The notes: generated from the letters alone by a model not told the origin. A stretch of 64,000 bases of DNA from an uncultured Spirochaetota bacterium (GCA_963781885.1 CAWAHW010000002.1:1184001-1248000); one strand, 5' to 3'. Counted from the first letter of the stretch, positions 43,759 to 60,868 are shown. Numbers and translations are program-made.

Positions 43759-44878
43759 TCACGAATGTGCCGATTCGGCGTCGAGGTACCTCTGCGCGAC
43801 TTCGCGGATCGACTCCGCGGTCGCCAGGAAAGCGTCCACGATGTCCGGATCGAAGTGACTTCCCGAGCTTTCCCGGATGATTGAGACGGCCATTTCGTGA
43901 GGGAACGCCGCCTTGTACACGCGTTTGCTCACCAGCGCATCGTAGACATCCACGACCGCCATGAGCCTTCCGGGAACGGCGATGGCCACTCCCGCCAGAC
44001 CCCGCGGGTATCCCATGCCGTCCCACCTCTCGTGATGCGACCAGGCGACTTCGCGCGCGAGGTGCAGGAATGAGGTCGGCGATTCAATGAGCTTCTCCGC
44101 CGCCATGATGGAGTTTCGACCGAGCGTGGTATGCGTTTTCATGATTTCGAACTCCTCCGCCGTCAGCTTCCCGGGCTTGAGGAGTATGCGGTCGGGAATC
44201 CCTACCTTGCCGATGCCATGGAGCGGGGCCGATTTGTAGAGGAGCTCGATGGTGTCGGGCGTGAGAAAGGACGAGAACCGTGGGTGGCCTTTCAGCCTGA
44301 GCGCGAGCATCTTCACGTAATGCTGGGTCCGGCGGATGTGATTGCCCGTTTCGTTGTCCCGTGTTTCCGCGAGCGACCCCATGGCCACCATTGTCACGTC
44401 CTGGATGGTGCTGATTTCCTGTGTCCTCCTCCCGACCTCCTGCTCGAGATACTCGCTCTTGTCACGCAGAAAGTCTCGCGCGCCCTTCAGTTGCAGGTGG
44501 GTCCGCACCCGCGCGGTCACGATAGCGGGACTGATCGGTTTCACAATGTAGTCGACTGCTCCGAGCTCGAGACCTTTCTGTTCGTCGGCGGCATCCGACT
44601 TTGCTGTAAGGAAGATGACCGGTATGTCGGTTGTGGTTGGATCGTCCCTCAGGCGCTGGCACACTTCGTACCCGTCCATTCCGGGCATCATGACGTCGAG
44701 GAGAATCAGGTCGGGAGGATGTGTCATGAGACGCGACCTCCAGGGCCTTCGCGCCGCCCGTGGCAACCTTCACCCGGTAGGTGGTGTTGAGAAGCGAGCT
44801 CATGAGCGCAAGGTTTTCGGGCGCGTCATCGACGATCAAGATGGTCTGCGTCCTGGCGTTTCTGGGCGTCTCTGACAT
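43759..44878 (-). CDS. REC plus HD-GYP response regulator (frameshift near 44735; HD motif reads HG)
   Basis: ILIVDD, LLDVMMP, ETGNHIRR, LHGIGK, HHERWDGMGYP. Confidence 0.85.
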
Positions 44879-44893
44879 GGTGACACCCTGCGT

Positions 44894-46430
44894 CTATACG
44901 ATCCCGTTGTCGAGTCGCTGCAAGGCGTCCCAGGCGGCGGAGAAATCGTATGCGATGAGCTTTTCTCGCAGCAATTCCACCTTGTTCTCCGCATACGACG
45001 AGGCAAGTCTTCCCGAAACGCTCTCGAGATAGTCGAGGGCGTCGCTGTCACTTTCCTTGATGAGTGTCGTGAGTCGCGCGATGATGATTGTCCGTTCCGC
45101 GGCGTCCAGCTGTGAGCCTGCCCGCTGCACGGGGGCCCGGGACGGAAGGGTTTCCAGAATGCCTGCCGTGGCCTTCTGGAGAGCCGCCGCAAGACGGCGC
45201 AGATTCTCCTCAACGGCGGTCGGTGTGTCTTTTGTCTGGATCCGCCGCTCCAGTTCGCCGGAGAGCTCCTGCACCTCGACCACGCCAAGATTGCCCGCTA
45301 TTCCCTTGACGGTGTGTGCGAGATGCTCAGCCGTCGGACGGTCCCCTTTTTCGAGGGCTTCCGCAATCCTGGCGGGGGTCTCATGGTGCCCCTCTGCAAA
45401 TCGGCGCAAAAGAACCGCATAGAGCGAGGCATTTCCCGCCACTCGCTTCAATCCTGCGACCACGTCGACTCCCACGATCGGGGCAAGGGAAAACTTCTCC
45501 CCAACGTGAGGAGTCTCTTCCGGAATCTGCCCTTTCAGTGTCGGGCCGCGGTAGTACTTGCGGATAGTCTGGACCATGGCGTCGGGGTCGATAGGCTTGC
45601 TTATGTGATCATTCATGCCCGCTTCCAGTGCTTTCTCCCGCTCTTCGCTCAGGGCATGAGCGGTCATCGCAATGACGGGAATGCTCGTTCCCCACTCGGC
45701 GGCCCTGATGCGCCGGGTGGCTTCGTACCCGTCCATTTCTGGCATCTGGACATCCATCAGGACCAGGTCAATACGTGCGGCGTGATCCATCAGCCTCGCA
45801 ATGGACTCCTTTCCGTTGTTTGCGATTTCCACCCCCGCGCCAGCTGCCTGGAGCAGCTCCACGGCGATCTCCTGGTTGATCTCGTTGTCCTCGACCAGCA
45901 GGATGCGCGCGCCGCTGAGCATCCCGGCCTGGTCGTTGCCGGGCATCGATTCACGAAGCGCGGGCCGAATATCGGGGGCAAACACCTTCAGAATGGCATC
46001 CAGAAGGCTGGAGGGGGTCAGTGGCTTCAACAGGAAGTCGGCCGCACCCGCGTTCAGCGCGTTCTGGCGTTCCCCTTCTGCTCCCTCCGACGCGCTGAGC
46101 ATGATGGCGACGGGCGGCCGCGCGGCCTTCACGCCGGCGAGGATTCGCCGCGTGGCTTCAATACCGTCTATGCCCGGCATCCTCCAGTCCATGAGCATGA
46201 GGCCGAATGGATCACTCTCTTCAGCGTTCCTGACCGCCTCTATCGCGTCGCCTCCAGAGGCGACCGTCTTCACCCGGAAATGAAGAGAAAGAAGGGTGCG
46301 CTCGAGGATTTTTCGCGCCTCCTCGTTGTCATCGGCCACGAGGACCCGCATCCCATTCAGATCCACAGGGACTGCAGGGGGTATGTCGAGACTCTGGCGG
46401 GACCGAAGCTGCCCCACTTCATCCAGGGCC
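44894..46430 (-). pseudogene. 5'-truncated hybrid sensor kinase remnant (REC-REC-HPt)
   Basis: Two receiver domains (LMDWRMP, LMDVQMP) and HPt AHTVKGIAGNLG. No HisKA or HATPase; the frame ends at the island edge. Confidence 0.75.
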
Positions 46431-46641: not shown

Positions 46642-46955
46642 GATGCCTCACGGAAAAAACTAGCCCAGAATATCCGGGCTTCAAGACGATTTCTGTCGCC
46701 TTGGCACGGAGGTGGGCTGAGATGGAGGTATCGATGACCGACAGGCGCACCATCATCAGGCGTAGCTTTCACCGCTACCAAGAGGCTGATCGGAAGACCA
46801 AAACACGAATCTTGAACCAGGTCATGGAGCAGACGATGTACCGCAGTCGCGCCTACCTGGCTTTGATCCTGCGCCAGTGGGGCAGGACCAACTGGCATTC
46901 GGGTCCGCGCGGACCCCTGCACAAATGGGCGAAGGGGACGTCCGCATCCCCGTAG
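46642..46955 (+). mobile_element. IS remnant: left end and N-terminus of an integrase-core (ISNCY-like) transposase
   Basis: MTDRRTIIRRSFHRYQEADRKTKTRILNQV...YRSRAY resembles the RY..A.K..K..ILDE N-terminus of this family; possible end GATGCCTCACGG. Confidence 0.6.
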
Positions 46956-47068
46956 GTTCTGCTAAGGACTGTAAGCCCTCTTGCAGTGCATCATGCGGTC
47001 CGCCGGTCTCTCTGAAATAGCTCGCCGTGGACGGGCGAAAGCTGCTCGCAGGCCGTTGGATTATAATA

Positions 47069-47100
47069 TTGACAGTTGCACTGCCACTGTATATTATGCT
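47069..47100 (+). promoter_or_regulatory. merR-vwa promoter with a spacer dyad
   Basis: TTGACA (47069-47074); dyad ACAGTTGCA-C-TGCCACTGT (47072-47090); -10 TATTAT (17 bp) or TATGCT (20 bp). Confidence 0.65.
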
Positions 47101-47103
47101 GTC

Positions 47104-47652
47104 GTGAGTCAAAGTGAGCGCGTCATGAACATGCAGGCGCTGAGCGACCGGTCCGGAACGCCTGTTCGCACAATACGGTTCTACATCAGTCAGCGGCTGC
47201 TGGCGGGGCCGCAAGGTCGGGGTACTTCCAGCTCCTATGCGGAGGATCACCTGCGGCGCCTTCTTCTGATCAAACAGTTGACCCGCCGTCACGTGCCTTT
47301 GACAGAGATCCGTGACCATCTGGATGGGGTCTCCCCGGAGGCACTCGCGCAGGTCCTCGAGTTGGCGCAGAAGCAAAACGCCGCGGAGGCAAAGGTGCAG
47401 AAGAACTCGCCCCGGCAATATCTGTCAGAGCTATTGCGGGACGTTCATCTCCATCGAATGGGAAGCGAGCTCGGGAAGCCGTATGTGCCACAGCGGGAGG
47501 ACCGCGACGTATGGCGGAGGGTGAAGGTCGCCTCGGGTATAGAGCTCCACTACACTCTTGAGTCTGAGGAGAGGAACGCTGAGCTCGTGGCTGAGTTGAT
47601 CGATAGTACGCGACAGGTTGCGCAGAGAGCAAGCACGAGGAGGGGAACGTGA
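47104..47652 (+). CDS. MerR-type HTH regulator
   Basis: LSDRSGTPVRTIRFYISQRLL.GP, YAEDHLRRLLLIK, C-terminal WRRVKVASGIELH. Confidence 0.88.
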   Translation: MSQSERVMNMQALSDRSGTPVRTIRFYISQRLLAGPQGRGTSSSYAEDHLRRLLLIKQLTRRHVPLTEIRDHLDGVSPEALAQVLELAQKQNAAEAKVQKNSPRQYLSELLRDVHLHRMGSELGKPYVPQREDRDVWRRVKVASGIELHYTLESEERNAELVAELIDSTRQVAQRASTRRGT

Positions 47653-49187
47653 TGGAAAATGGACATCCGGCAGAGGGAACGAACGGCCAGGAGGGCATGT
47701 TTCTTGGAGTTGGCGTAGAGAGACGACTGCTCAGGACCGTGAAGAGCGTGAGCCATATCGACCTGACAGTTCGTGCGCCGGTTGCGCATGGAGAAACCGG
47801 GCGGCCGCCGCTTGCTCTTTCCCTGGTGATCGACAGATCGGGCTCAATGCAGGGGAACAAGCTCATCACTGCCAAGCGCGCCGCACTCGCCGTCTTGGAC
47901 CGGCTGAGTGGTGAGGATATCGCGGCCGTCGTGGTCTTCGACAACATCATCGATCTGGTCCTTCCCGAAGGGCCGATAAATGATGAGAGAAAGGCACAGG
48001 CACGGGCCGCCCTCTCTCTCATAGAGGCGAGGTCCCAAACCGCGCTCCACGAGGGCGGGCTGACGGGATGTCGGTCCATTGCCGCGGATGTCATACAGGG
48101 CAGGAAACCCGAAAGGCTTTCCCGGTGCTTTCTGCTCACGGACGGGCTTGCAAACGTGGGCATGACCGACCCTGAGCAGATCGCGGCCCAGACGGCGGAT
48201 GTGCGGCAAAACACTGGGATATGCACAAGCACTTTCGGGATTGGGGATGACTATGATGAAAGGCTCCTTGCCCCTATGGCGGTTGCAGGCAGTGGCCAAT
48301 TCCACCACTTGCGGGATGAAGCGGACATTGCCGCCACCTTCGCGGGCGAACTCTCTGAGATGTTTGAGGTGACCGCGCGAAGCGTGAGCATTGAGATCCA
48401 GGCGGACCCCTCGGTGCATCCTGAGCTGGTCAGCCTGTACTGGGGGGCGAACGGCGCCGGCCCTGGCGTCCTCCGCGTCGATCTGGGTGACATGATCGGC
48501 GGTGAGGAACGGCACGTGGTGGCGCGGCTCGTCTTCGGCTGGGTTCCTGTTGGCGCGCGCATTCCTATGCGTGCCCGCGCGATCTGGCGCGATGGTCAGT
48601 ATCTCAGGGACGGGCCATGGCAGGAGCTCACTTTTGTGGGAGCCGATGACGCAGCCTGCTCCAGGGAAGCGCGGGACATGGCCGTGATGCACTGGGTGGG
48701 GTGTCATCACGCTGACAAGGCCAAGGCAGAGGCCCTGGCGCTCCACCGGCAAGGAGATACGGAGGAGGCCATCCACGTCCTGGAGGGCGTGATGCGGAAG
48801 ATGGGTGAATATGCCGCCGCGGACCCTGACCTGGTACGGGCCTTGAAAGAGCTTGGCGATCTCCGCGAGAAGCTCCTTATGGACCGCGTTTCTTCATCGA
48901 TGGCCAAAGAAATGAGCTATACCTCACACCTGAACTCACGAATGCAGCGGGACATGCGCCACGTCCTGACCGCTGGAAACGGTTCCTTTCGCCTCGTTAC
49001 ATCGCAAGAGTGTGGTCTTTGGGACGCCCTCCACTATGGGACTTATTCAGCCGGTCGCAGCCACCGCCGGAGTTACACTACGCCCGGCGCCAGCCTGCTT
49101 CTCAGTAGTCTCGCTAGGTTTTCTGACGCCAGGAAACGCCTGGCCTATGCTCCGGTGGAGGCCGACCATGGAAAAATACCAGCCTAA
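47649..49187 (+). CDS. VWA (MIDAS) domain protein with Ig-like and helical C-terminal regions
   Basis: LVIDRSGSM, LLTDGLAN, STFGIGDDYDE. The last ~70 codons look like read-through; the true stop may be near 48970. Confidence 0.88.
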   Translation: MMENGHPAEGTNGQEGMFLGVGVERRLLRTVKSVSHIDLTVRAPVAHGETGRPPLALSLVIDRSGSMQGNKLITAKRAALAVLDRLSGEDIAAVVVFDNIIDLVLPEGPINDERKAQARAALSLIEARSQTALHEGGLTGCRSIAADVIQGRKPERLSRCFLLTDGLANVGMTDPEQIAAQTADVRQNTGICTSTFGIGDDYDERLLAPMAVAGSGQFHHLRDEADIAATFAGELSEMFEVTARSVSIEIQADPSVHPELVSLYWGANGAGPGVLRVDLGDMIGGEERHVVARLVFGWVPVGARIPMRARAIWRDGQYLRDGPWQELTFVGADDAACSREARDMAVMHWVGCHHADKAKAEALALHRQGDTEEAIHVLEGVMRKMGEYAAADPDLVRALKELGDLREKLLMDRVSSSMAKEMSYTSHLNSRMQRDMRHVLTAGNGSFRLVTSQECGLWDALHYGTYSAGRSHRRSYTTPGASLLLSSLARFSDARKRLAYAPVEADHGKIPA

Positions 49188-51483
49188 ACCGATTGACACT
49201 TCACACATTACGCTCCCAAAAGGCATTTTGAAGCTCAAGGAAAAGCTCGCGGAGAACGTGCACGATGTCTGGGCTCAGCAACGGATCAAGGACGGGTGGA
49301 CGTATGGGAAAAGGCGTAGCGACAGGACCAAGCGTCACCCCTGCCTTGTGCCGTACAGGGAGCTTCCGGTTTCAGAGAAAAGGTATGACCGCAGCACCAT
49401 GGAGGAGACCATCAAATGCATACTTGCTCTCGGGTATACCCTGGATTCTGCAAAACATGATGCTGAAGAGGACGATCCTGCCTTGCGTGAGCTCGAGTTG
49501 CTGCTCAAGAGCCCCAAGCCCGATTTCCTGGAGATGTTTCGGCTGTGGCAAAACAGGAATCCACTCGCCAGGCCCGAGACTCCGCGTCTGCACGAATTGT
49601 TCGCGAATCGCCTGATCAAGATGGAGGAATCTATCGTTGCATATGACGTCATCGCGCACGGTTTATCAATCTGGCCGAGCGATAAGAGCATGCTGCATAA
49701 AAAGGGCCTGGTGCTCGCGCGAACCGGCGCCACGGAAGAGGCCCTCTCCATAGCATCCGGCCTTGAACGGGTGACGGGGAAAAAGGATCCGCTCCATGAT
49801 GAAATCCTGGGGCTTCTGGGACGCTGCTACAAGGACCTTTGGGAGTATGAGCATGATTCAACGAGAAAGCGGGAACACCTCGAGCGCGCCTTCGAATTTT
49901 ATCAACGCGCGTTTCAGAGCCTGCGGGGAACCTATTATACGGGCATAAACGCGGCGCACATGGCGCTGCTCAAGGGGGACAGGGAAGAGGCGCTCAGGTT
50001 GGCGGAGATGGTGATAAGCTGCTGCGCATCCGAGCGGCGAAAAGGCGAGGATTCCTACTGGCTGTACGCAACCATGGGCCACGCTCTTCTGATAAAGGCG
50101 TTTCAGGAGCCGCGATTCATGGATGAGGCGGAGCACTGGCTCAGGAGCGCAGCGACCGCGGGCGCGGGCAACTACGGCGATCTCAATGCAACCAAGCGAA
50201 GCATCAGGCAGATCCGTGAAAATATCACGCTGCCACGGGAATTCGAGGAACGCGTGGAGAGTCTGCTCGCCCTATTCCAGTGCCCTTGCGTGGCCGTCTT
50301 CTCCGGGCACATGATCGACCAGCCGGGAAGGCCGGAACCTCGCTTCCCCCAGGGCATTGCTGCAAGGGTCAAGCGTGAGATCAAGCAAAAGCTCATGGAT
50401 CTGAATGTTCGCATTGGATTCGCCTCCGGCGCATGCGGCGCGGACATCCTGTTCCATGAGACACTTCTCGAACTCGGTGGCGAAACGCACGTGGTGCTGC
50501 CATTCAATCGCGATGAGTTCATGAAAACGACCGTTGGGGTCGGGGAGAACGCGGATTTTTGGAAGGGAAAGCTCAGGGCGATCCTGAAGAAGGCCAAGAG
50601 CGTCATCACCGTGTCAAGGCAGCAGACTGATTTCGGGTCGGTTTATTACGATTACGCGAATATCGTGCTGAACGGGCTCTCCCGGAACCAGGCCATGCAC
50701 CTGGACACGGACCTGGTGGCGCTCACGGTCTGGAACGGGAAGGCGGGGGATGGGCCGGGCGGTACCGCAAGCATGTATGGCTATTGGAAGGATGTGATGG
50801 GCCTTCCCAATATCCAGGTCATCAATCCACGGCAATTCTTGCCGGAGGGAGAGGTTGGGAACCTTACAGGCGCGGACATATCACCGGATGATATGACTAT
50901 CGAGCCGGCGAACGCCCAATCGCCGGTTGCATCACCGGTCGCGGCTGAGAGCATCAAGGCCATGCTGTTCGCAGATGTGGTGAAATTCAGTAGCCTCAAG
51001 GCGGGCCAGATCCCTGCTTTTGTCAAGAGTTTTATGGGCGCCATCGCTGGATTGATCGAAAAGACAGAATACAAGCCGGAAACCAGAAACACGTGGGGCG
51101 ACGGTCTCTATTTCGTTTTCGACAAAGTTGAGCACGCGGGTCTGTTCGCGCTCGATTTGTGCGATCTGGTCTTGGGCACGAACTGGATGGAGAAGGGCTT
51201 GAACGATAATACGAGCATCCGAATTGCGCTGCACGCAGGCCCTGTTTTCTGCTGCGTGGATCCTATTCTCGGGGTGAAAAACTACACGGGCTATCATGTG
51301 AATACAGCCGCGCGTCTCGAGCCCATAACGCCCCCCGGCAATGTCTACGCCACCCAGCAATTTGCCGCGCTCGCGTCATTCCACGGGATTACGGGTTTTG
51401 CGTGCGACTATGTGGGTCAAATCCCCTTTCCCAAGGGCTTTGGCGCTTACCCGATCTACCATGTGAGGAGAGCACAGGGGTGA
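49168..51483 (+). CDS. RyR domain, TPR (TPR-S/TRAF-binding-like), SLOG-like, class III nucleotide cyclase fusion
   Basis: RyR: LAENVHDVWAQQR..GWTYG...HPCLVPYRELP.SEKRYD. TPR: LLGRCYKD, YYTGINAA. SLOG: FSGHMID, SGACGADILF, HVVLPF. Cyclase: LFADVVKFS, TWGDG, RIALHAGPV, VNTAARLE. SD GGAGG. Confidence 0.85.
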   Translation: MEKYQPKPIDTSHITLPKGILKLKEKLAENVHDVWAQQRIKDGWTYGKRRSDRTKRHPCLVPYRELPVSEKRYDRSTMEETIKCILALGYTLDSAKHDAEEDDPALRELELLLKSPKPDFLEMFRLWQNRNPLARPETPRLHELFANRLIKMEESIVAYDVIAHGLSIWPSDKSMLHKKGLVLARTGATEEALSIASGLERVTGKKDPLHDEILGLLGRCYKDLWEYEHDSTRKREHLERAFEFYQRAFQSLRGTYYTGINAAHMALLKGDREEALRLAEMVISCCASERRKGEDSYWLYATMGHALLIKAFQEPRFMDEAEHWLRSAATAGAGNYGDLNATKRSIRQIRENITLPREFEERVESLLALFQCPCVAVFSGHMIDQPGRPEPRFPQGIAARVKREIKQKLMDLNVRIGFASGACGADILFHETLLELGGETHVVLPFNRDEFMKTTVGVGENADFWKGKLRAILKKAKSVITVSRQQTDFGSVYYDYANIVLNGLSRNQAMHLDTDLVALTVWNGKAGDGPGGTASMYGYWKDVMGLPNIQVINPRQFLPEGEVGNLTGADISPDDMTIEPANAQSPVASPVAAESIKAMLFADVVKFSSLKAGQIPAFVKSFMGAIAGLIEKTEYKPETRNTWGDGLYFVFDKVEHAGLFALDLCDLVLGTNWMEKGLNDNTSIRIALHAGPVFCCVDPILGVKNYTGYHVNTAARLEPITPPGNVYATQQFAALASFHGITGFACDYVGQIPFPKGFGAYPIYHVRRAQG

Positions 51484-51622
51484 TCAGGAATTGCCGACGA
51501 TAGACAGCGAAAGTGCATTTCTGTACGCTCAGCCTGCAAAATAAACCATTTCCCAACACAGCACTGCAGCCGAGTGCCTGGAACTCAAGCCGTTTTTTTT
51601 TGCTTGGCTGCCGGAGATCTGC

Positions 51623-53037
51623 ATGAAAAGGGTGTTCATTTCATACCGATACAAGGATCATCCTCGGTTTGAACTTGTCAGAGAGATCTCGGCACGCCTC
51701 CGCTTCTTCTCGATAGAGGTGATCCTGGATCAACGCAGTTTGCTTTTTGGAGAGGACATCAAGGCTTTTATGGAGGAGATGATACAGACAGCAGACGCGA
51801 TCGTGATCCTTCTAAGTGAAGACTATAATCAGGCTCTCCGCCAGGAGGTCGGCCCGGGAGCCGGCGTCCGCTTTGAAGTAAGTCTCGCTCTGCAAGAACG
51901 AAAGCGAAGGCCTGCTTTTCGAAATTCTCCCGATCCTTCTCGACTCAAGTCTTCCTGTCCCCCCATTTGACCGTTTGAAGTGCGCTAGACCGAACGATAT
52001 CGATCAAATCGTCACAGAACTGGGGTTGGTTGAGCATCTGAGTGAGTCGCGTGTTCTGGCCGACCGCTACCGTCTGGATCAATTCGTTGAAACTCGTGGA
52101 CTGGCTCGCGTGTTCAAGTCCCATGATCTGGTTTTGGATACCCCTGTGGAAGTCTATATGGTTCCCGCGACAGGGGAGACTGGCCTTCAGGGCGAGAGGT
52201 TCCGGATTTTCGAAAGGGTCCTAAAAGGACGATCTCAGGCATTTAGTCCATTTCTCCTAAACATTCGCGATTCTTACGTAGATTCTGATGGTGCGTATTA
52301 TCTCGTCACCGAAGAGTTTGCCGGTACCGACCTGAGCGTGCCTCTCAACAGAGGGTTTACGACACACCCTTTTGGCGCACTCTGCATCGCCTACCAGGTT
52401 GCCCTTGGTCTCTACGAGCTTCACCAGAGTGGAGTTCTCCATGCTGGCCTGGCTCCGCGCGCCATCCGGCACAACAAAGAAAGAACTCTCTGCAAGATCG
52501 TTGACTTTGAATTCGCAAGACCCGCTATCGGCGTTCGTCAGCTGCCACTGGACGGATACCCTATCATTTCGCCCCCGGAGCGTTTTGCTGGCAAACCGCC
52601 CTCCATTTGTCAGGATGTCTACCAACTCGCGAATCTTGTATTTTGGCTTATTTGTGGTTTTCCGGTAGTGTCGCGCTCTGTCTATAGGCTCATGCCTTCA
52701 GCCTTAACTCTTTCCACTGTGGTTTGTGAGGATTCTGGCCTCCAAGAATCTCATTGCATCTACGCTATCCGATTTTTCCTCTCGGAAAATAGCAACGGCG
52801 GATCGGAATCCAGACTTAACCGAGGCTATCGCCAGATCGCAATCGACCGACTTCATAAGAAATGTATTAAGCCCGTTTCTTGCTTCCTGTCTTCATCCTG
52901 ATCCTCGATTGAGGCCGAGAAATATCGGTGAAGTGCTGGGCTTTCTATCGACACTGGAGATTCCGCCAGCGGGCAGACTGCTCGATCGTGGGGGCGCCGA
53001 AGTGTCGGGTGCTCTTTTTCCAGAATATGAAACGTAG
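51623..53037 (+). CDS. TIR domain fused to a Ser/Thr-kinase-fold pseudokinase (two frameshifts, near 51922 and 52715)
   Basis: VFISY, LLSEDY, GVRFE. Removing one A gives ILPILLD, which runs into DRYRL, LVTEE, LHAGLAPRAI, IVDFE, PPE, DVYQL and CLHPDPRLRP. Confidence 0.75.
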
Positions 53038-53127
53038 GTGGAAGGCCACATTGAATTGCAGCCAGGACGCAGCAGGGCACTTGAGCTTCACCGTCCTGGA
53101 TTGAGAATGCGCGGCCACGTCCCTTTT

Positions 53128-53393
53128 TTATAAAGCGATTCTTTGCAGCAGATCGGTTGGAATCGAGCTGAAATGGCTGTCCTTGTGAACGAGTATTGCG
53201 TTATTGAGAGAAGCGCATGCGGCAATCAAGGCATCAAAAAGGGGGAGGCGCGCCTGGCTCAGAGAAGACAGTTCAAAGGCTCTCACTGCGACTGCTGTAT
53301 CAATCGCCATGACGCGCTCAGCCAGCGAGGCATAGGAAAGACTCATAGAGCGCGCTTGATCCACTGTATGTCCGAGTCCAACTGAGCGGGAGC
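53128..53393 (-). pseudogene. PIN/VapC ribonuclease remnant (C-terminal half)
   Basis: LPLFDALIAACA...LVHKDSHF; the 5' part is replaced by the IS21-like end. Confidence 0.75.
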
Positions 53394-53653
53394 TGGGGTC
53401 AGGTCAATTCCCCACCCTCAGGGCTGGTAGGGTCATGTAGATTCCCCGGGTTTCGCGGTTTCGCTCCGTCAGGGTCATTACAATTCCCCACCCCGACGAT
53501 CCCCGGTAGGGTGTCTCCAGAGGGGGACATCAAGGATGGGCTATCGAAGGATGAAGAAGCGCGACCTGTGGGAGACTACCGCCGATGGCAGGCCGGGCGG
53601 TCGCTCTCGCATATTGCCGCTAAAGAGCGGCGCGATCGACGATCAACTCTGAA
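53394..53653 (+). mobile_element. IS21-family left-end remnant and istA N-terminus
   Basis: Starts with TG; three copies of GGGTCA-N5/6-ATTCCCC (near 53396, 53430, 53472); then MGYRRMKKRDLWE/YRRWQAGRSLSHIA.KERRDR HTH. Confidence 0.65.
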
Positions 53654-53858
53654 GGTGAAAAACTGCACGGGCTATCACGTGAATATGGCCGCGCGGCTTG
53701 AGAGCATCACGCCCCCGGGCAGCGTCTACGCCACCCAGCAATTCGCCGCTCTCGCGTCATTCCAGGGCAACGCAAGCTTTGCATGCGACTATGTGGGCCA
53801 GATCCCCTTTCCTGAAGGATTTGGCTCATACCCGATCTACCTCGTGAGGAGGGAGTAG
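53654..53858 (+). pseudogene. Remnant of a second cyclase paralogue (C-terminal ~67 codons)
   Basis: Gap-free 198-nt match of 53654-53851 to 51273-51470, with many third-position differences. Confidence 0.9.
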
Positions 53859-53893
53859 CGCGTTCACCACAAACGGACGTACACGTGTTTGAC

Positions 53894-54586
53894 TCACTCC
53901 TGCCGATCGACCGAAGACGGGGATATTCCCAGGCGGGAAAGCGACCGCGCGGCTTCATCTCGAACTCTCTCGTCCCAATCCTTCAAGCATTCCTGGAGAG
54001 CTCCCACCGCCCGAGAATCCTCGATCTGGCCCAATGAATGAATAACGGCAATCCGTGTATGGACGTCGTACATTCCATTCCCGTGCGTCTTCAAGCTCTT
54101 TACGAGAGGCTCGACCGCATGCGGTTCGCGCAATAGTCCCAATGCGCGCGCGGCTTCGGTGCGGCGCCTGACGCCCAAGTCCCACACATGCTGGTCGGAA
54201 ATCCCCCGGCTCTCCTCCCGAGCCCACGACCTGTTGAACTCATCGTCATCGCCCTCATAATGAATCCTTCTTCGTGATGAGGTCATGCCTTCAGGATGCA
54301 GCTCGGTGATCCACAGCTCGAGCAATCGCGCCTTCAGGTCGGCATCCCGAACGCGTGCCGCCATCGTAACCAGGGCATCCACGGCGGCATGTGCTTCCGT
54401 GTCATCCTCAGCTCCGCGAGCGACAAGCAAGGGCTCCACGGCGCTGTCATCCCCGACCTCGCCCAACGCGGCTGCCGCCTTTGTCACGCTCATACGATCC
54501 TTGGAAGAGCGAAGGACTTTGATCAAGTTTTTCACGTCCGAGCGGGCCTTCATGCGATCGACGTTTGGCGGACCGAATATGCTCAT
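53894..54586 (-). CDS. HEAT/PBS-lyase repeat protein
   Basis: FGPPNVDRMKARSDVKNLIKVL; repeats AA.ALG..GD..AVEPL. SD GGGGAGG. Confidence 0.85.
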   Translation of the reverse strand: MSIFGPPNVDRMKARSDVKNLIKVLRSSKDRMSVTKAAAALGEVGDDSAVEPLLVARGAEDDTEAHAAVDALVTMAARVRDADLKARLLELWITELHPEGMTSSRRRIHYEGDDDEFNRSWAREESRGISDQHVWDLGVRRRTEAARALGLLREPHAVEPLVKSLKTHGNGMYDVHTRIAVIHSLGQIEDSRAVGALQECLKDWDERVRDEAARSLSRLGISPSSVDRQE

Positions 54587-54669
54587 CCTGCGACCTCCCC
54601 ATGCTTATGAATTATTCCGATTCCTCTCATCAACTTCACCTGCAGCGGACCTTCCCCGCCTTGGTGTGC

Positions 54670-54884
54670 AGCCGCCGTTTTCAATGTCTTTTCCACCATC
54701 TCCCGCAGCACCTCGCTGAGCTGGTCCTTCACCAACGCCTCGTCGATGCGTATAATCCTTTGCTGTGAACCTTCGTAGTTCATGACGCCCTCCTGAATCA
54801 GTCTGGTCCAGCAACTCAACTGAAGCAGAAGAAGGCGCCCTATTTCGAAGGACTCCAAATGTGCGAAAGATAGTATACGTAATC
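54670..54884 (-). mobile_element. IS256-family left-end remnant
   Basis: End GATTACGTATACTATCTTTCGCACATTT (54884-54857); SD AGGAGG; MNYEGSQQRIIRIDEALVKDQLSEVLREMVEKTL, then the frame breaks off. Confidence 0.65.
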
Positions 54885-55038
54885 CTGCCGGAGGCCGTAA
54901 AGTTGTGGGACCGCGCCACGGCGAGCAAGATCCCGGAAATTCCTGGCACAAATGGGATTGGCGGTCAAACGCCAGGGCGTGGCTGGGCCGCGTTCAAGCG
55001 TTATTATGAGTCCGTGAATATGGCAGAGGAGCTATGCG

Positions 55039-58000
55039 ATGACCAAAGCCAATGACCGCTACCATTCGCTACGTGGGCTTAGTCTCCCTCACGATGCCTT
55101 TGAGAAGCTGCCGAACATCGAGCGCTACCTCGACGCGGCAGTCGAGAAAGCGTGCGGCGAAATCGTTGCGAGCGGGCCGTTGCCTTGCATCGATGCGCGC
55201 TATGCATTTGCGTTCAACAAGATGGCGCGTGACAGCTATGAGGCGGGGCGAATTGGTGAGGCGGTGGGGCACTATACCCATGGGATCAAGCTGCTCGCCC
55301 TGCTGCTGAAGTCACCCCATGTGCTTGGCGCGTCCCGGTCGACGATCCCAGAGTTTCTCTCCGGCGTCTATTCCGACCGCGCGAGTGCCTGCTCTGATGT
55401 GAATGACTTCACAAACGCGCTCGCCGACTACGCTTGCGCGCTGCGTTTCGACAATCCACAACGCTGGGTCATACTCCTAAATCGGGCAGGAACATTTGAG
55501 CGAATCGGCGAGTTCCAGAGTGCGGAAAGGGATCTGCTGGAGGCGCAACGAATCGCCCCGAAGGCTGGTACGCCGCATGCAAACACGCATGGCACGGAAG
55601 CCCTCGACCGGATCGAGGAGTCCCTTGGACGCGTTCGTCTCGCGGCAGTCGGTCGCGGGGGGGGGTCGGAGGAGCCGCCGTCGCCTCCAACGCCAGAGGC
55701 AAGTGAGAGCGGGACCTCGCTCTACGGGGTTGGCTCGCCCAAGGTCGGCCTTGACGCCGCTCGGGCCGAGATCGCAGAGGGGGAGCCGCGCGTCATCCGC
55801 GTCTTCATTTCGTCAACCTTTCAGGACATGCAGGCCGATCGCGACGAACTGGTGAAGCGGACGTTTCCTGCGCTGCGCAAGCTCTGTGAATCACGTGGCG
55901 TTACCTGGGGAGAGGTCGATCTGCGCTGGGGCGTGACCGACGAACAACGCGCGGAGGGGAAAGTGCTGCCCCTCTGCCTCGAAGAGATCCGGCGCTGCCG
56001 GCCTTACTTCATTGGGCTGCTGGGGGAGCGATACGGTTGGGTGCCCGACGAGATTCCCAGGGAGCTGACCACGCGGGAAGAATGGCTGACGGAGCACCGC
56101 GGCGTTTCGGTTACCGAGCTGGAGATCCTGCATGGCGTGCTGAATGATCCCCAAATGGCCGACCGCGCCCTGTTCTACTTCCGTGACCCTGCTTACAGCG
56201 AGGGGAGGCCGGATGGCGAGCGAGCGCCGTATCTCGAGGCTCCGAACGCGGACGAGACTGCGCGCTTTGGACGAGAAGAGGCTGCGCGTAGGGCTGAGGA
56301 GCGCAGGCAGAAGCTGAAAGCCTTGAAAGGGCGCATTCGGGATAGCGGCCTTCCTCTTCGCGAGAACTACAGAGATCCACGCGAGCTTGGCGAGCTCATC
56401 TTGTCCGATATGACCTCGATTATCGATCGGCTCTTCCCGGAAGGCTCCGCGCTGGACATCCTCGATCGGGAGGCACGTGATCACGCTTTCTTCGCGCGCA
56501 GCCGCGCAAATGTCTACATTCGGCGACCTGCGTACTTCGAGCGTCTCGATCGTCATGTGGGGAGCGACGATCCGCCCCTGGTCTTGATCGGCGAATCGGG
56601 CTCTGGGAAGTCCGCGCTTGTCGCAAATTGGTCGTTGGAATATAGAAAGAAGCACCCGCGCGATTTCCTTTTGCTTCACTTCATTGGTGCCACACCCGAC
56701 AGCGCGCATTGGGCACCTATGTTGCTTCGGATTATGGGCGAATTCCATCGCCAGCTGGGCATTGTTGGCGAAGTCGGCGAGAATCCGCAGACACTGCGCG
56801 CGTCGTTTGCCCGATGGCTGAATATCGCCGCGGAGAAAGCGCGTATTACACTGATCCTCGATGGGCTGAACCAACTCGAGGACACCGATCAGGCTCTTGA
56901 CTTGAGCTGGCTGCCAGAAACAATCCCGAATAACATTCGGCTGATCCTAACCACTCAGCCGGGCCACACCTTGGATGTGCTGCGCGCGCGCGAATGGCCC
57001 ACCGCACTGGTGGAGCCTTGCACGGAAATGGAACGCGAGAAACTGATCGAACAGTATTTGCTGCAGTATGGAAAGGCGCTCAGCCCAAAGCAGATGAAGA
57101 CGATCGTTTCCGCGACGCAGGCCGGGAACCCTCTTTACACAAGAGCGTTGTTGGAGGAACTGCGAATGTTTGGGGTCCATGAGCAACTCGACCAGTGTTT
57201 CCAAAGCTATCTGCAAGCCGCGACGATCGATCAGCTCTTCGAGAGGATCCTTGCCCGTTGGGAGCACGACTATGAGGACCACCAAGCGCCCCAGCTTGTG
57301 GGCAGGGCAATGACGCTGCTATGGGCCGCGCGAAGAGGTTTGTCGGAAGCAGAGCTGTTGGAACTGCTCGGGACAGAGAAAGCGCCACTACCGCACGCCC
57401 TCTGGTCGCCGCTGCACCGGGCGCTTGACTCGCATATAGTCGACCGGATGGGTCAACTGGCTTTCTCGCATGAATACATGCGTCAGGCAGTACACCAGCG
57501 CTATCTGGCAAATGAGGAAGCAGCACGGGACGCGCATCGCAAGCTCGCAGATTACTTTGCGGGACGAGGTCTTACTCAGCGAAAGATCGAGGAAGAGCCG
57601 TGGCAAATGGATCGTGCTGGCGATTTCAAGTCTCTCGCGCGCCTGCTGTCTGATCCCTCGTTTTTCATTGCCGCGTGGCAGTCGAACCAGTATGAACTGA
57701 AGGCTTACTGGACACATATCGAGAAGCAGTCGGACGTGAGGTTAGCCACAGCATATCACGCCGTACTGGAGTCGCCTGAGAAGGTGGATCATGAGGCAGT
57801 ATGGAACATCGCGATGTTGCTCAACGACACCGGATCTCTTCCAGAAGCACTGCAGCTTCGACGTTACCTGGTCCGCTACTACCGGACGTCAGACGATCGG
57901 AAAAGGCTGGCGGGCGCGCTGGGTAACGAGGCCGCTTCGCTCATGGCTGTCGGGGACATGGCCGGCGCCATGCCCCTGGTTCGAGAACAAGAGCAGCTTG

Positions 58001-59274
58001 CCCGCGATCTGGACGACAAATATGAGCTTGCGAGATCGCTTGGTAATCAAGCGATCATCCAGCGGCACCTCGGCAATCTTGAGGAAGCGAGCAGATTACG
58101 TAAAGAGTGCGCGCTCGTGGCGAAGGAAATGGGCAACGACCTGCTGATGGCCGAGTCGCTTGCGGATCAGGCGTTAATCCTTGCCAAGACGGGCAACCTG
58201 CCCGAGGCGCTGGAAGTAGTCGAAGTGGCGGAGCGTGTTTTTTATGGATTGGGCGAAAAGCGGTCGTTGGCCATCGCTCTGCTCAATCACGCTTCGATGT
58301 TGAAACAGCAGGGCAATCTCCGAGGTGCCCTTGCACTCCACGAGAAGGCTGAGTGCTTGCATCGCGAGATGGGGGACAGGGAATTGGTCGCGAAATCGCG
58401 CGAGCTAGAGGGCGAAATCTTCGTCGCGCTGAAAGATCTTCGCGCAGCGTTGCAGTGTTTCCAGGAGCAAGAACGCCTGGCACGCGAACTGAGCAACATG
58501 CGAATATTGGCCTCATCCGTCGGGCGCCAAGGGCAAGTGTCCGCCCTGCAAGGCGAGCTCGATCAAGCCTTGCGACAGTTCCAAGAGTCCGAGCGATTAA
58601 GCCGTGAGTCGAGTGACCTGGTTCCAGTCGCCTGGTCGCTGATTCAGCAGGCGATTGTGCTGGCAGCCGAGAACGATCTCGATGGCGCGCTGAATCGGGG
58701 CAAGGAAGCCGAGAGCTTGTGTCGCAAGCTTGGGAACAAGCCACTACTGGCAGAGGCGCTCGACCGTCAGTCTCGAGCCTATGCTGCGCGCGGTGAAGGA
58801 AAGGTATGCCAACCGCTGCTAAAGGAACTAGAGCGCCTGTACCGCGAGCTTGGCGACAAGCCGCATCTGCAATCAACACTTGGCTCCCTGGCTGCCCTTC
58901 ATTACTCGGACGGCGACTTCGCTGCCACAATAACGCTGTTGAAAGAACAGGAAGCCCTCGCGCGTGAGCTCAATGATCTGGCGAGCGTGCAGCTTGCGAT
59001 TGGACACCGTGCGGAGATCTTGTTCCGAACCAACAACGTTCCGGCCGCGCTTGACGCGCTGGAAGAGAACGTTCGGCTGTGCCGTGAATCGGGCGATAAG
59101 GCCGGGCTGGTAAGAGTGCTCGGCAACCAGGCTGAGCTCCTGCACCGCAGCGGACAGTATCAACACGCACTGAGACTGGTCGATGAGGCGGCCGCTGTCG
59201 CTCAAGAAGCGCGTGATCTTCAATCGGCCTTGCGGATTGAAGACTTGCGCCATCGGATCCAGACACGTCGGTAG
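55039..59274 (+). CDS. NLR-like STAND NTPase: TPR, DUF4062, NACHT/AAA, TPR array (NPHP3/TEP1-like)
   Basis: IRVFISSTFQDM..DR, VDLRWGV, CLEEI..CRPYFIGLLGERYG, SVTELEI; Walker A GESGSGKS; Walker B LILDGLNQLE; GNPLY; many ~40-aa TPRs. Confidence 0.9.
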   Translation: MTKANDRYHSLRGLSLPHDAFEKLPNIERYLDAAVEKACGEIVASGPLPCIDARYAFAFNKMARDSYEAGRIGEAVGHYTHGIKLLALLLKSPHVLGASRSTIPEFLSGVYSDRASACSDVNDFTNALADYACALRFDNPQRWVILLNRAGTFERIGEFQSAERDLLEAQRIAPKAGTPHANTHGTEALDRIEESLGRVRLAAVGRGGGSEEPPSPPTPEASESGTSLYGVGSPKVGLDAARAEIAEGEPRVIRVFISSTFQDMQADRDELVKRTFPALRKLCESRGVTWGEVDLRWGVTDEQRAEGKVLPLCLEEIRRCRPYFIGLLGERYGWVPDEIPRELTTREEWLTEHRGVSVTELEILHGVLNDPQMADRALFYFRDPAYSEGRPDGERAPYLEAPNADETARFGREEAARRAEERRQKLKALKGRIRDSGLPLRENYRDPRELGELILSDMTSIIDRLFPEGSALDILDREARDHAFFARSRANVYIRRPAYFERLDRHVGSDDPPLVLIGESGSGKSALVANWSLEYRKKHPRDFLLLHFIGATPDSAHWAPMLLRIMGEFHRQLGIVGEVGENPQTLRASFARWLNIAAEKARITLILDGLNQLEDTDQALDLSWLPETIPNNIRLILTTQPGHTLDVLRAREWPTALVEPCTEMEREKLIEQYLLQYGKALSPKQMKTIVSATQAGNPLYTRALLEELRMFGVHEQLDQCFQSYLQAATIDQLFERILARWEHDYEDHQAPQLVGRAMTLLWAARRGLSEAELLELLGTEKAPLPHALWSPLHRALDSHIVDRMGQLAFSHEYMRQAVHQRYLANEEAARDAHRKLADYFAGRGLTQRKIEEEPWQMDRAGDFKSLARLLSDPSFFIAAWQSNQYELKAYWTHIEKQSDVRLATAYHAVLESPEKVDHEAVWNIAMLLNDTGSLPEALQLRRYLVRYYRTSDDRKRLAGALGNEAASLMAVGDMAGAMPLVREQEQLARDLDDKYELARSLGNQAIIQRHLGNLEEASRLRKECALVAKEMGNDLLMAESLADQALILAKTGNLPEALEVVEVAERVFYGLGEKRSLAIALLNHASMLKQQGNLRGALALHEKAECLHREMGDRELVAKSRELEGEIFVALKDLRAALQCFQEQERLARELSNMRILASSVGRQGQVSALQGELDQALRQFQESERLSRESSDLVPVAWSLIQQAIVLAAENDLDGALNRGKEAESLCRKLGNKPLLAEALDRQSRAYAARGEGKVCQPLLKELERLYRELGDKPHLQSTLGSLAALHYSDGDFAATITLLKEQEALARELNDLASVQLAIGHRAEILFRTNNVPAALDALEENVRLCRESGDKAGLVRVLGNQAELLHRSGQYQHALRLVDEAAAVAQEARDLQSALRIEDLRHRIQTRR

Positions 59275-59989
59275 CTCTCCCCACGCGTGATCGCGCTCAG
59301 AGGCCGATCCTTGAAAGTGGGCAGAATGAGACGCTTGAGTTGGGAAGAGCGCAGCACCGCACATGACCGCGAGAAGTGTCCGGAGTGACCTATGTTACGG
59401 GCTGTGCAGGGTGCCGAGGGGCTTGTGTGGGCGAAACCATTCCAGGGCAAGCCGATGCATGGCTCCCGAGGCAGAGGTCTCCCCCGGCTGTGCGAGCGGC
59501 ATCCGTTGTGGGGGCTCTGTCAGGCGGCGGGTTTCACAAGACTACGCATGCGCTCCTGTTGCTCAGCTCTGATCCGTCCCATCGCGATCCGGAGGAGGGC
59601 TATGGTGGGCGCTTGGGGGGGAGCAAATCGCACTTTAATCCATTATTTTAGCTGATCATAGATCCCAAAAACATTTGAACATAAGGGCGCAACAATTTGC
59701 ACCGAAGCGCGAACCGGCGCTGCCTTTGAGCAGAGTTTCGGGGATGTGTCGTGCAATACGGTCGAGGTTGGGCGCGTTTGTCCTATGGTCGCCATGGATG
59801 TCGCACTGGCTGTTCAAGATATACTTGCATCCAAATAGCCGCTTGGTCTTGAAGGAAAGAAAAGAGGGGGCGGAGAGCTGTTGCGGAACGCGCGATGCGT
59901 AAATAGCCTTGTGGGTGATTGTCACCTAAAGCCGAGCCTTCAATCATTTCTATTTTCTCCTGAGAAGCAGGATGGATTCTCCGTAAGCG

Positions 59990-60285
59990 AGTATCGCCGG
60001 CGATACTTCGACCAAGCGCAGCTCCAACCTGAGCGAGAGCATCAAAAAAGCGACTTGTGAAGTAGTGGACAAGAAGAAAGTCAGAGTTAACAGCTAATAT
60101 ATTACATAGCAAATAGTTAGAAGATTTATGTAAACAGGAATGAAGTTGTAAACGGCATAATTCCTTGATGCGAAACGAATTGAGAAAAGGCGTTTACATC
60201 CTTTATCTTGTCCTATGCATTTTGTCCTATGCACTTTATCATTCCATCTTGATATCGAAGTATCGCCGGCGATACTTCGAATATC
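59990..60285. repeat. Pair of palindromes bracketing an AT-rich, internally repeated segment
   Basis: AGTATCGCCGGCGATACTTCGA at 59990-60011 and 60259-60280; the second is part of the perfect 26-bp palindrome at 60255-60280. Confidence 0.85.
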
Positions 60286-60455
60286 TATGCAATGGACTGG
60301 GTTTTATGCTGCCGGCATGCTTGATGGATTACTTTCATCGTCCCCCCTGCGAGGCGGCAAAATCGGAAGACCCTTGAAGTGCAAGGACATATATAGCCGA
60401 GATTCCGCGTACCGCAATGTGGTGGTGATATAATGCCACAACTGAGGAGGCATCC

Positions 60456-60653
60456 ATGGATTTCAGGCGGTTTCGAGTGTACGTGGACGAGGTGGAAGAA
60501 GGGAAAGGTTTCGAGACGGATGAAGCTTTTCCCGTTCTATCCATGAGGGATGGGCAAGGAGGAGTAACGGAACTTCTTGTCCCGGATATCAAGAAAAAAC
60601 TCACTTGGGTGAAGATGAAAAACACAAAGTTCATGGGCTTGAGCAGAGTGTAG
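60456..60653 (+). CDS. Small hypothetical protein (65 aa)
   Basis: Extended -10 TGATATAAT (60425-60433), SD GAGGAGG, beta-rich composition. Confidence 0.65.
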   Translation: MDFRRFRVYVDEVEEGKGFETDEAFPVLSMRDGQGGVTELLVPDIKKKLTWVKMKNTKFMGLSRV

Positions 60654-60868
60654 GGAAACCGCGGCAGGCCCCTAAGAGATCGCACTTTGCACTGCCAGTA
60701 AGAAAGATTCGAGCCGTGAGCCTCCGAGAAGCCCCCCGGACGAACTTTTACTGACAGACACCCTCAGGGGGGGGGGCGCAGACCCTGCAATGGCCCGCTA
60801 ATAGCAGGCTATGTCATGACTGCATCGTAGCCCCTATGTTTGAAAGCACTGCGCCGCCAAAGGACTGA

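Follow-up and report, generated by a model that had tools for sequence, protein, structure and literature searches.

This article deals with a pair of adjoining genes, one encoding a multidomain protein that ends in a class III nucleotide cyclase and the other a TIR-domain protein with a kinase-like part, in the region 46.6-59.3 kb of a 64,000-nt stretch of DNA from an uncultured Spirochaetota bacterium (GCA_963781885.1 CAWAHW010000002.1:1184001-1248000; the whole stretch is called the window here, and the source genome is 92.6% complete). An earlier note on the window had taken the entire region to be one immune island, in which a TIR or DUF4062 product is read by SLOG and RyR domains and converted to a cyclic nucleotide. 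The genes that it named, for a MerR-family regulator, a VWA protein, a RyR-TPR-cyclase, a TIR-kinase, a HEAT-repeat protein and a TPR-DUF4062-NACHT-TPR protein, are all present according to a listing of open reading frames (ORFs) and to Pfam, but the supported unit is the cyclase-TIR pair and not the whole of 46.6-59.3 kb. For this pair the two-messenger relay is upheld by the recurrent pairing of the genes and by the families of the receiver domains, while as an island-wide system it is not supported.

The cyclase-TIR pair

The two genes lie on the same strand with a gap of 139 bp, and their products and domains are as follows.

49168..51483, + strand: receiver/output protein, 771 aa, with the start MEKY taken from the database form P0001
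About 49177-49446, + strand: RyR domain (Pfam RyR, 4e-36)
About 49651-49962, + strand: TPR-S domain (Pfam TPR-S, 3.8e-19)
About 50248-50832, + strand: SLOG-fold domain (predicted fold)
About 50959-51426, + strand: class III cyclase domain (Pfam Guanylate_cyc, 6.6e-8)
51623..53037, + strand: TIR-pseudokinase, presumably the signal generator; its TIR is SEFIR-like
51623-51970, + strand: TIR piece (Pfam TIR_2, 5e-12)
51975-52901, + strand: kinase piece (Pfam Pkinase, 2e-8)

In animal RyR2 the first RyR repeat matches the RyR domain of the window protein with about 50% identity (per-domain E 8e-22). According to the available text of a 2026 preprint (PMC13232231), the phage RyR-domain protein RyDEP cleaves 2'/3' cyclic ADP-ribose (2'/3'cADPR) and contacts its ligand through H75, W78, H100 and D117, and six of eight tested phage homologues bind 2'/3'cADPR. 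RyDEP and the RyR sponges described there belong to the same family (PF02026) as the window domain, in which the residues H32, W35, H57 and D74 have exactly the spacing of the four RyDEP residues (matched by spacing, not by alignment to RyDEP) and are kept in 24, 22, 19 and 21 of 24 relatives, respectively. Because H32 and D74, the two dyad residues, are both kept, the RyR domain may be a built-in off-switch which cleaves the first messenger. The domain also matches RyR-domain ORFs in 235 phage records, the hosts of which include Salmonella, Pseudomonas, Arthrobacter, Aeromonas and Gordonia, and these matches fit a RyR domain common to host receivers and phage counter-defence proteins; two unverified phage contigs, H1 and H2, match the RyR part only. 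Whereas RyDEP is a small phage counter-defence protein, the window RyR domain is encoded by the host as part of a larger protein with TPR-S, SLOG and cyclase domains, and the words cyclase, TPR, SLOG and fused do not occur in the available text of PMC13232231.

The same TPR stretch is matched by Pfam MAP3K_TRAF_bd (4.7e-10), a point of likeness to the regulatory region of animal ASK1 (MAP3K5), although the window protein has no kinase output. As far as their available text goes, Kaur et al. 2021 trace the components of the ASK signalosome to bacterial conflict systems, and Kaur 2020 and Kaur 2021 treat this bacterial origin together with vWA-MoxR ternary systems that have inactive kinase and cyclase modules.

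The middle domain, between TPR-S and the cyclase, is without a Pfam match and fits no SLOG model in Pfam even at E<=10, and a profile search against PDB sequences gave chance matches only. Its AlphaFold2 model, however, which was built on 49 sequences with a predicted local distance difference test score (pLDDT) of 87.8, is matched by Foldseek to YpsA (2nx2, E 1.2e-6, template-modelling score 0.67 on the target) and next to DprA, ShosA, the Moco carrier protein and LOG, all of which we take to be members of the SLOG superfamily. The SLOG domain claimed by the earlier note is thus borne out by the predicted fold, which confirms a SLOG fold at the level of the model. In the C-terminal domain D603 and D645, the metal aspartates, and R716 are invariant in 24 of 24 relatives; these residues, with a Lys and an Asn position, are presumably the catalytic set of class III cyclases. 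The specificity position is N, S or T, and the only match in the PDB is weak (5oyh, E 0.0076) and covers the Arg region only. The domain looks like a selected, probably active cyclase of unusual specificity.

The same architecture was found in 152 database proteins by a word-indexed search, and one scan of species-representative genomes gave 587 confirmed relatives; the SLOG domain alone has 4724 database representatives. The cyclase family is common in Acidobacteriota, Cyanobacteria, Planctomycetota and deltaproteobacterial lineages. In P0378 a GAF domain takes the place of RyR before TPR-S-SLOG-cyclase, and in P0327 and P0324 STAND NTPases are fused to TPR-S-SLOG, the forms among them being nSTAND1 NTPase-TPR-S-SLOG and cyclase-AAA_16-TPR-S-SLOG. 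These swaps and fusions support a modular sensor.

The second gene of the pair is spread by the assembly over three frames (51623-51970, 51882-52901 and 52708-53037), with shifts near 51922-51924 and 52747 as located by alignment to intact homologues, of which there are 20 (448-508 aa, 51-74% identity). Contigs derived from reads have no extra base at either site: one contig is exact to 51923 and then has one A fewer, the other omits one base at 52747, and each difference brings the gene back into the frame of the intact homologues. Most likely, the frameshifts are assembly consensus errors or a strain variant, and since the read-derived contigs lack both extra bases, the gene is probably not broken, in which case its product would have about 470 aa. 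The "repaired" 47.0-53.1 kb, which had been put forward for cloning, therefore needs revising. Other single-base indel errors are possible elsewhere in the assembly, and apparent pseudogenes need care.

In the window protein and in 11 of 11 aligned intact homologues the catalytic loop reads HAG or HGG instead of HRD, DFE stands instead of DFG, and the VAIK lysine is absent across the family; by these losses in its sequence the kinase domain is confirmed as a conserved pseudokinase, as had been claimed. The TIR part keeps a glutamate ("VRFEV") at the usual position after strand C, and a glutamate stands there in each of the five partner TIR families too; we take it to be the catalytic residue. 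PADLOC's bSEFIR model matches the TIR part only, over profile positions 39-119/140 of 412, both in the window protein and in the intact homologue P0124, and not over the full length that single-gene bSEFIR defence would call for. A metagenome scan gave just two further contexts of the TIR-pseudokinase subfamily (L157 and L158), the flanking ORFs of which gave no Pfam match, and a homologue is present in 0/4 and 0/401 Planctomycete genomes.

The evidence for the pair as a unit comes from the neighbourhoods of its relatives. For the best 80 of the 587 relatives all ORFs around the cyclase gene were clustered and annotated. A TIR or DUF4062 gene lies within 4.5 kb of the cyclase gene in 46/80 loci and is its immediate neighbour in 40/80, and these counts are lower bounds, several neighbours being cut by contig ends; where both flanks are complete, such a gene is present in 30/45. 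It is found at 41/64 of the loci with RyR and 4/11 of those without. TIR/DUF4062 genes are the only recurrent neighbours of the cyclase relatives, the median distances of the partner families from the cyclase being 83-331 bp, and in all of the partner families the C-terminal part is variable, being WD40, TPR, Sel1, CHASE2, BioY or kinase. The partners are listed below.

TIR-DUF4062 protein, 505 aa: 19 loci, with a WD40-cluster gene beside it in 15/19
TIR protein of about 637 aa (TIR637): 15 loci, same strand, median gap 83 bp
TIR-TPR protein: 6 loci, within 4.5 kb
TIR-Sel1 protein: 4 loci, within 4.5 kb
Single cases: TIR-BioY, TIRx3-CHASE2, TIRx3-WD40, kinase-TIR-kinase (L070), DUF4062-NACHT (L057) and DUF4062-TPR (L076)

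The 19 TIR-DUF4062 loci are nearly all from Acidobacteriota and so are not independent; three of three WD40-cluster genes whose N-terminus was scanned encode nSTAND1 NTPases. By tblastn, the window TIR itself occurs at none of the 80 loci and the window kinase at one.

A second line of evidence comes from the host's own genus. A TPR-S-SLOG-cyclase without RyR, 35-40% identical, is present in 16/20 congeners, and in 13/13 fetched loci of the host's genus or family (L107-L119) a gene for a protein of about 350 aa with a C-terminal TIR comes after it on the same strand. The source genome, at 92.6% completeness, has no such genus-type version. This pair often adjoins a GGDEF gene, and its gene order is partly conserved.

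At L007 (9542-11305) and L060 (9078-9836), LSDAT-type SLOG genes stand directly beside the cyclase gene, the one at L007 being fused to SLATT_1; this arrangement resembles the rare two-effector operons of the cADPR-driven Thoeris types VII and VIII. Crp-type genes for binding of cyclic mononucleotides (cNMPs) form a three-locus cluster in the 80-locus survey, and GAF-domain neighbours occur in at least 4 loci. As a whole, the neighbours are a mixture of housekeeping and conflict-type genes.

Neighbouring genes, remnants and the accessory stretch

The remainder of the region contains the following features.

46981..47652, + strand: MerR-family regulator (Pfam MerR_1, E 5e-12)
47649..49187, + strand: VWA protein, 512 aa (Pfam VWA, E 8e-8)
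53128..53403, - strand: PIN-domain gene, C-terminal remnant (Pfam PIN, E 1.9e-6, profile positions 68-117 of 120)
53378..53638, no strand assigned: end fragment of an IS21-type insertion sequence (IS), 88% identical to an element end in a congener
53654..53858, + strand: second RyR-type cyclase gene, diverged, last 68 codons or so, truncated upstream (by identity to the end of the intact gene)
53894..54586, - strand: HEAT-repeat protein, 230 aa (Pfam HEAT_2, 1e-16)
55039..59274, + strand: TPR/DUF4062/NACHT/TPR STAND NTPase, 1411 aa (Pfam DUF4062 3e-13, NACHT 8e-9)

The less GC-rich DNA described earlier is real (guanine + cytosine fraction 0.52-0.62 over 46-59 kb, against 0.63-0.665 at 40-43 kb). 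In a DNA search of 30 relatives the flanks at 43.0-46.4 kb and 60.4-62.5 kb are matched in congeners, while the core has no match in these relatives, 18 congeners included, except for short stretches, chiefly of the cyclase, and for the IS end. Because the flanks match and the core does not, 46.6-59.3 kb is an accessory stretch, in which gene remnants and part of an IS21 element lie. An empty-site junction was not seen in any of the relatives, there is no tRNA or Rfam feature at the ends of the island, and terminator-like sites are no more frequent than in shuffled sequences.

The VWA gene shares 4 nt with the end of the MerR gene and 20 nt with the beginning of the cyclase gene. A near-consensus sigma-70-like promoter (11/12 matches) lies at 47069-47097, inside the listed MerR ORF, and MerR homologues align only from residue 26-30 or so; therefore, the true MerR start is probably downstream of 46981. 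A VWA homologue is present in 37/301 genomes of the host's class. Directly upstream of both of the two close ones (42-44% identity, 428-430 aa) is a MerR homologue (32-35% identity) with the same stop/start overlap as in the window, and their neighbours are sugar kinase, aldolase, B12-binding, nucleoside hydrolase and transporter genes, with no cyclase, TIR or NACHT gene near either. Since in addition neither MerR nor VWA was found by tblastn at any of the 80 cyclase loci, MerR-VWA is a separate operon outside the TIR-cyclase module, and the earlier suspicion that the genes were separate arrivals is right for this operon and most likely also for the other genes beside the pair. The vWA-MoxR (VMAP) ternary systems, in the available text of Kaur 2020, need a MoxR ATPase and a VMAP component, whereas the homologues of the window VWA protein pair only with MerR, and no MoxR-type ATPase is encoded among the ORFs scanned at 46.7-59.3 kb.

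Between the pair and the NACHT gene, the PIN, IS and second-cyclase pieces are debris. Both gene remnants had been recognized correctly: the PIN piece matches its profile in part, and the cyclase piece (53654-53851 against 51273-51470) is 83% identical in DNA and 82% in protein over 68 aa, although it is only about 50% identical to the genus-type cyclases. The IS scars stand in part. The 88%-identical IS21 end corresponds to a congener element with an istA-like ORF and IstB_IS21 (2e-57), and the stretch 53378-53638 recurs in several congeners at about 89-90%, often at contig ends; the IS256-like scrap at 54583-54993 and the ORF scrap read as an IS21 helix-turn-helix had no Pfam match and were dropped. 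The PIN gene was found at none of the 80 cyclase loci by tblastn.

At the right edge, a miniature inverted-repeat transposable element (MITE)-like element of about 290 bp (59990-60280), in a stretch of 49% GC just after the NACHT gene, is bounded by perfect 22-nt inverted repeats, AGTATCGCCGGCGATACTTCGA, and has a 74% identical copy on another contig of the source genome. Two further stretches, 59276-59382 right after the NACHT stop codon and 60426-60655, 1.1 kb on, recur in several congeners with 78-92% identity and may be repeat elements which mark the right edge of the accessory region. On the left, 43759-46417 encodes a response-regulator-HD-GYP protein and a double-receiver-Hpt protein; since the same contig, at other places, and the congeners have paralogues with 65-74% DNA identity, this flank belongs to a conserved signalling neighbourhood and has nothing to do with the island.

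The NACHT protein belongs to a very large family (4545 matches at E<=1e-10), the core of which is about 60% identical across phyla. As a candidate for the Avs/bNACHT antiviral STAND NTPases it has a NACHT domain and TPR repeats; it matches no NLR model in PADLOC, where only TPR (1.6e-5) and mad8 (2e-4) gave weak matches. Its closest homologue, P0144, has two tandem DUF4062 domains and an N-terminal HEAT piece which is 37% identical (E 1e-11) to the N-terminus of the window HEAT protein, and on this ground HEAT and NACHT may belong together; HEAT_2 occurs in 1 of 120 NACHT homologues among the matches listed. The DUF4062 model (pLDDT 69.8) gave nothing in Foldseek at E<=1e-3, where TIR domains reached no better than E 0.03-0.12, and in the VIA-wide comparison the best match was an Argonaute MID domain (Z 6.0), followed by nucleoside deoxyribosyltransferase (4.7) and YpsA (4.6). 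A likeness of DUF4062 to TIR is thus not supported by Foldseek or VIA comparison of the predicted model.

Most likely, DUF4062-NACHT-TPR, perhaps with HEAT, is a separate STAND sensor. It may instead once have served the second, destroyed cyclase, of which 68 codons are left, so that the island would have held two parallel modules, each cyclase with a dedicated partner; we consider this rather unlikely, although the remnant is on the strand of the NACHT gene and precedes it by 1.2 kb, and although the two kinds of gene are loosely linked elsewhere. At L057 a 35%-identical DUF4062-NACHT(-WD40) homologue starts 195 bp downstream of the cyclase, at L076 the partner is DUF4062-TPR, the TIR-DUF4062 gene stands beside the cyclase at its 19 Acidobacteriota loci, mostly with an nSTAND1-WD40 gene, and there are the STAND fusions. 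The exact pairing, however, is seen in 1/80 loci only, the 19 loci are not independent, an opposite-strand HEAT gene lies between the remnant and the NACHT gene, and DUF4062 cannot be counted as a TIR-like domain on the comparisons above.

Interpretation and rival explanations

According to the available text of a 2025 preprint (bioRxiv 10.64898/2025.12.03.692087), Thoeris types V-XI have been verified, 29 types are predicted in all, and Thoeris effectors destroy or deplete something. In type VIII the ThsB TIR makes canonical cADPR on infection, and this triggers the effector ThsI, which carries a TPR domain predicted for TIR signalling by Aravind and colleagues; type VII uses a SLATT effector. 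The claim that the window matches no named system holds for PADLOC 2.0, which has no model for the cyclase family and matches the partners only at the level of the TIR domain, but it has been overtaken in that a TIR with a TPR-S effector is now type VIII Thoeris (10.64898/2025.12.03.692087). The window pair is like that type in having a TPR-S domain beside a TIR gene and unlike it in its output, for ThsI has a CMP-hydrolase-like output, and the window receiver, in which Pfam found no hydrolase domain, has a class III cyclase with an added SLOG and an N-terminal RyR. Its SLOG-fold domain is a likeness to type I Thoeris (ThsB with ThsA SIR2-SLOG), where SLOG reads the TIR signal and switches on the fused enzyme; in contrast to type I, the window has neither SIR2 (Pfam) nor a ThsA model match (PADLOC), its SLOG matches no Pfam SLOG model, and its output would make a nucleotide and not destroy NAD+. 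The main text of the 2025 preprint contains no nucleotide cyclase, adenylate, guanylate or cAMP and names no nucleotide-cyclase effector. We read the pair as a putative new variant of Thoeris-like (TIR) signalling, in which the output is a cyclase and the RyR domain is encoded by the host.

The established domain identities, SLOG fold, conserved catalytic and ligand residues and conserved gene pairing allow a mechanism to be proposed for this variant, in which the order of signalling, the nature of the two messengers and an antiviral function are our inference. The dead kinase domain would be a variable, bait-like input which detects an invader or a cue, whereupon the TIR would convert NAD+ to an ADP-ribose-derived messenger, a cADPR isomer. 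The RyR, TPR-S and SLOG domains of the 771-aa neighbour would bind this messenger, the RyR domain perhaps also cleaving it, and binding would switch on the C-terminal class III cyclase to produce a cyclic mononucleotide. This product would act on receptors encoded elsewhere, or else the cyclase would drain the pool of nucleoside triphosphates. That the pair is such a two-gene Thoeris-like module, with the TIR-pseudokinase as sensor and generator, RyR/TPR-S/SLOG as receiver and the cyclase as output, seems to us somewhat more probable than the opposite. The more specific proposal, that the RyR-type (R12) domain together with TPR-S and SLOG is a host receptor which reads a TIR-made cADPR isomer and converts it to a cyclic mononucleotide, is tentative and, on balance, doubtful.

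Several observations weigh against the proposed module. No TIR/DUF4062 gene lies within 4.5 kb of the cyclase at 34/80 loci, among them 15/45 with complete flanks; no cyclase accompanies the TIR-pseudokinase at L157 or L158 in the flanks at hand, which cover 1.1-3.1 kb upstream and, at L157, 2.2 kb downstream, the L158 contig ending in the gene. The lysine of the cyclase stands one residue early (K640 in 21/24 relatives, R in the window), and at the asparagine position S is found in 17/24 and N in 7/24. The read evidence on the two frameshifts consists of two public short-read runs from one study at a depth of 3-4, with one contig per site. TPR-S as the cADPR sensor is a presumption and not a result in the available text of 10.64898/2025.12.03.692087. 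The pair has no conserved cNMP receptor as a neighbour, and the genus-type pair sits amid housekeeping-looking genes, which fits ordinary physiology as well as defence.

The last points lead to the main rival, a physiological pathway, in which the state of NAD+/ADP-ribose metabolism, or a cue of development or stress sensed through the repeats of the TIR partner, would be passed on to cAMP or cGMP and act through the host's many cNMP-binding proteins. In its favour, the genus-type pair is widespread among the congeners and has a partly syntenic setting, with genes for GGDEF, OsmC, Rieske-FAD reductase, aminotransferase and transketolase around it, housekeeping genes (IspD, EngA, TGT, ResB) are neighbours at many of the 80 loci, PADLOC has no model for the proteins of the pair, and the source genome has 22 matches to PF00027 (cNMP_binding). 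None of these matches lies in the window, the nearest being 125 kb away, and the earlier note was right in seeing no cNMP-binding effector. The window pair, however, lies on the lower-GC stretch with its IS21 fragment and remnants, a stretch which apart from short pieces, chiefly in the cyclase, has no DNA match in 18 congeners. The repeat or decoy domains of the partner TIRs are hypervariable, as is typical of conflict systems, and SLOG-SLATT, DNA methylase, NB-ARC or integrase genes lie near some loci. Moreover, in the available texts, RyR, SLOG and TPR-S have so far been tied experimentally to Thoeris signalling (PMC13232231; 10.64898/2025.12.03.692087). We regard a purely physiological role as unlikely.

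Pycsar systems pair a cyclase with TIR or membrane effectors. The window pair is like them in that its cyclase domain is of class III type, adjoins a TIR protein and stands in what is probably a conflict context, and the flow could accordingly run the other way, the cyclase sensing infection and its cNMP activating the TIR as an NAD+-depleting effector. A caution that the TIR may be the effector in unverified operons is given in 10.64898/2025.12.03.692087, and large parts of TIR637 and of the genus-type partner are unannotated, an ESM Atlas search of these parts having given nothing useful. Nevertheless, neither the window cyclase nor its homologue P0005 matches a PADLOC model of any kind, Pycsar models included, there is no adjacent cNMP-binding effector, and the three input domains of the cyclase belong to families linked with ADP-ribose signals, which points to the opposite direction. 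Because no partner representative (TIR637, TIR-DUF4062, TIR-TPR, TIR-Sel1, the genus-type partner with n=2 and the window TIR-pseudokinase) shows a cNMP_binding domain in Pfam, the reversed flow is the less likely direction, and we hold it to be quite improbable.

That MerR, VWA, cyclase, TIR-pseudokinase, HEAT and NACHT form one multi-gene immune system can hardly be right, in spite of their co-orientation and tight overlaps, the HEAT-NACHT fusion in P0144 and the STAND-cyclase links elsewhere (the TIR-DUF4062 loci, L057, P0327 and P0324), for of the genes that had been suggested to co-occur around cyclase homologues only TIR/DUF4062 genes do so, HEAT being found at 0/80 loci and NACHT, which debris and the IS21 fragment separate from the intact cyclase and which comes from so large a family, at 1/80, and for MerR and VWA, which form a pair of their own elsewhere, this reading is largely refuted.

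Implications

If the cyclase-TIR pair works as the proposed module, its cyclase output would relay one nucleotide messenger into another, with amplification, thresholding and cross-talk with the cNMP network of the cell as consequences; if the more specific receptor proposal is true as well, prokaryotic immunity would have its first two-tier cascade of nucleotide messengers. The lineages which carry the family, namely Acidobacteriota, Cyanobacteria, Planctomycetota and deltaproteobacterial groups, are poorly covered by defence screens. In addition, a RyR (R12) domain is found here in a host protein beside a TIR enzyme, months after phage RyR proteins were shown to bind or cleave 2'/3'cADPR, and host receivers of this kind, if the reading is true, would be a possible cellular source of the phage RyR-domain sponges and glycosidases. 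They would also be a bacterial model for the action of cADPR on the R12 domain of animal ryanodine receptors, that is, a small and soluble bacterial system for a direct look at the long-debated connection between cADPR and RyR.

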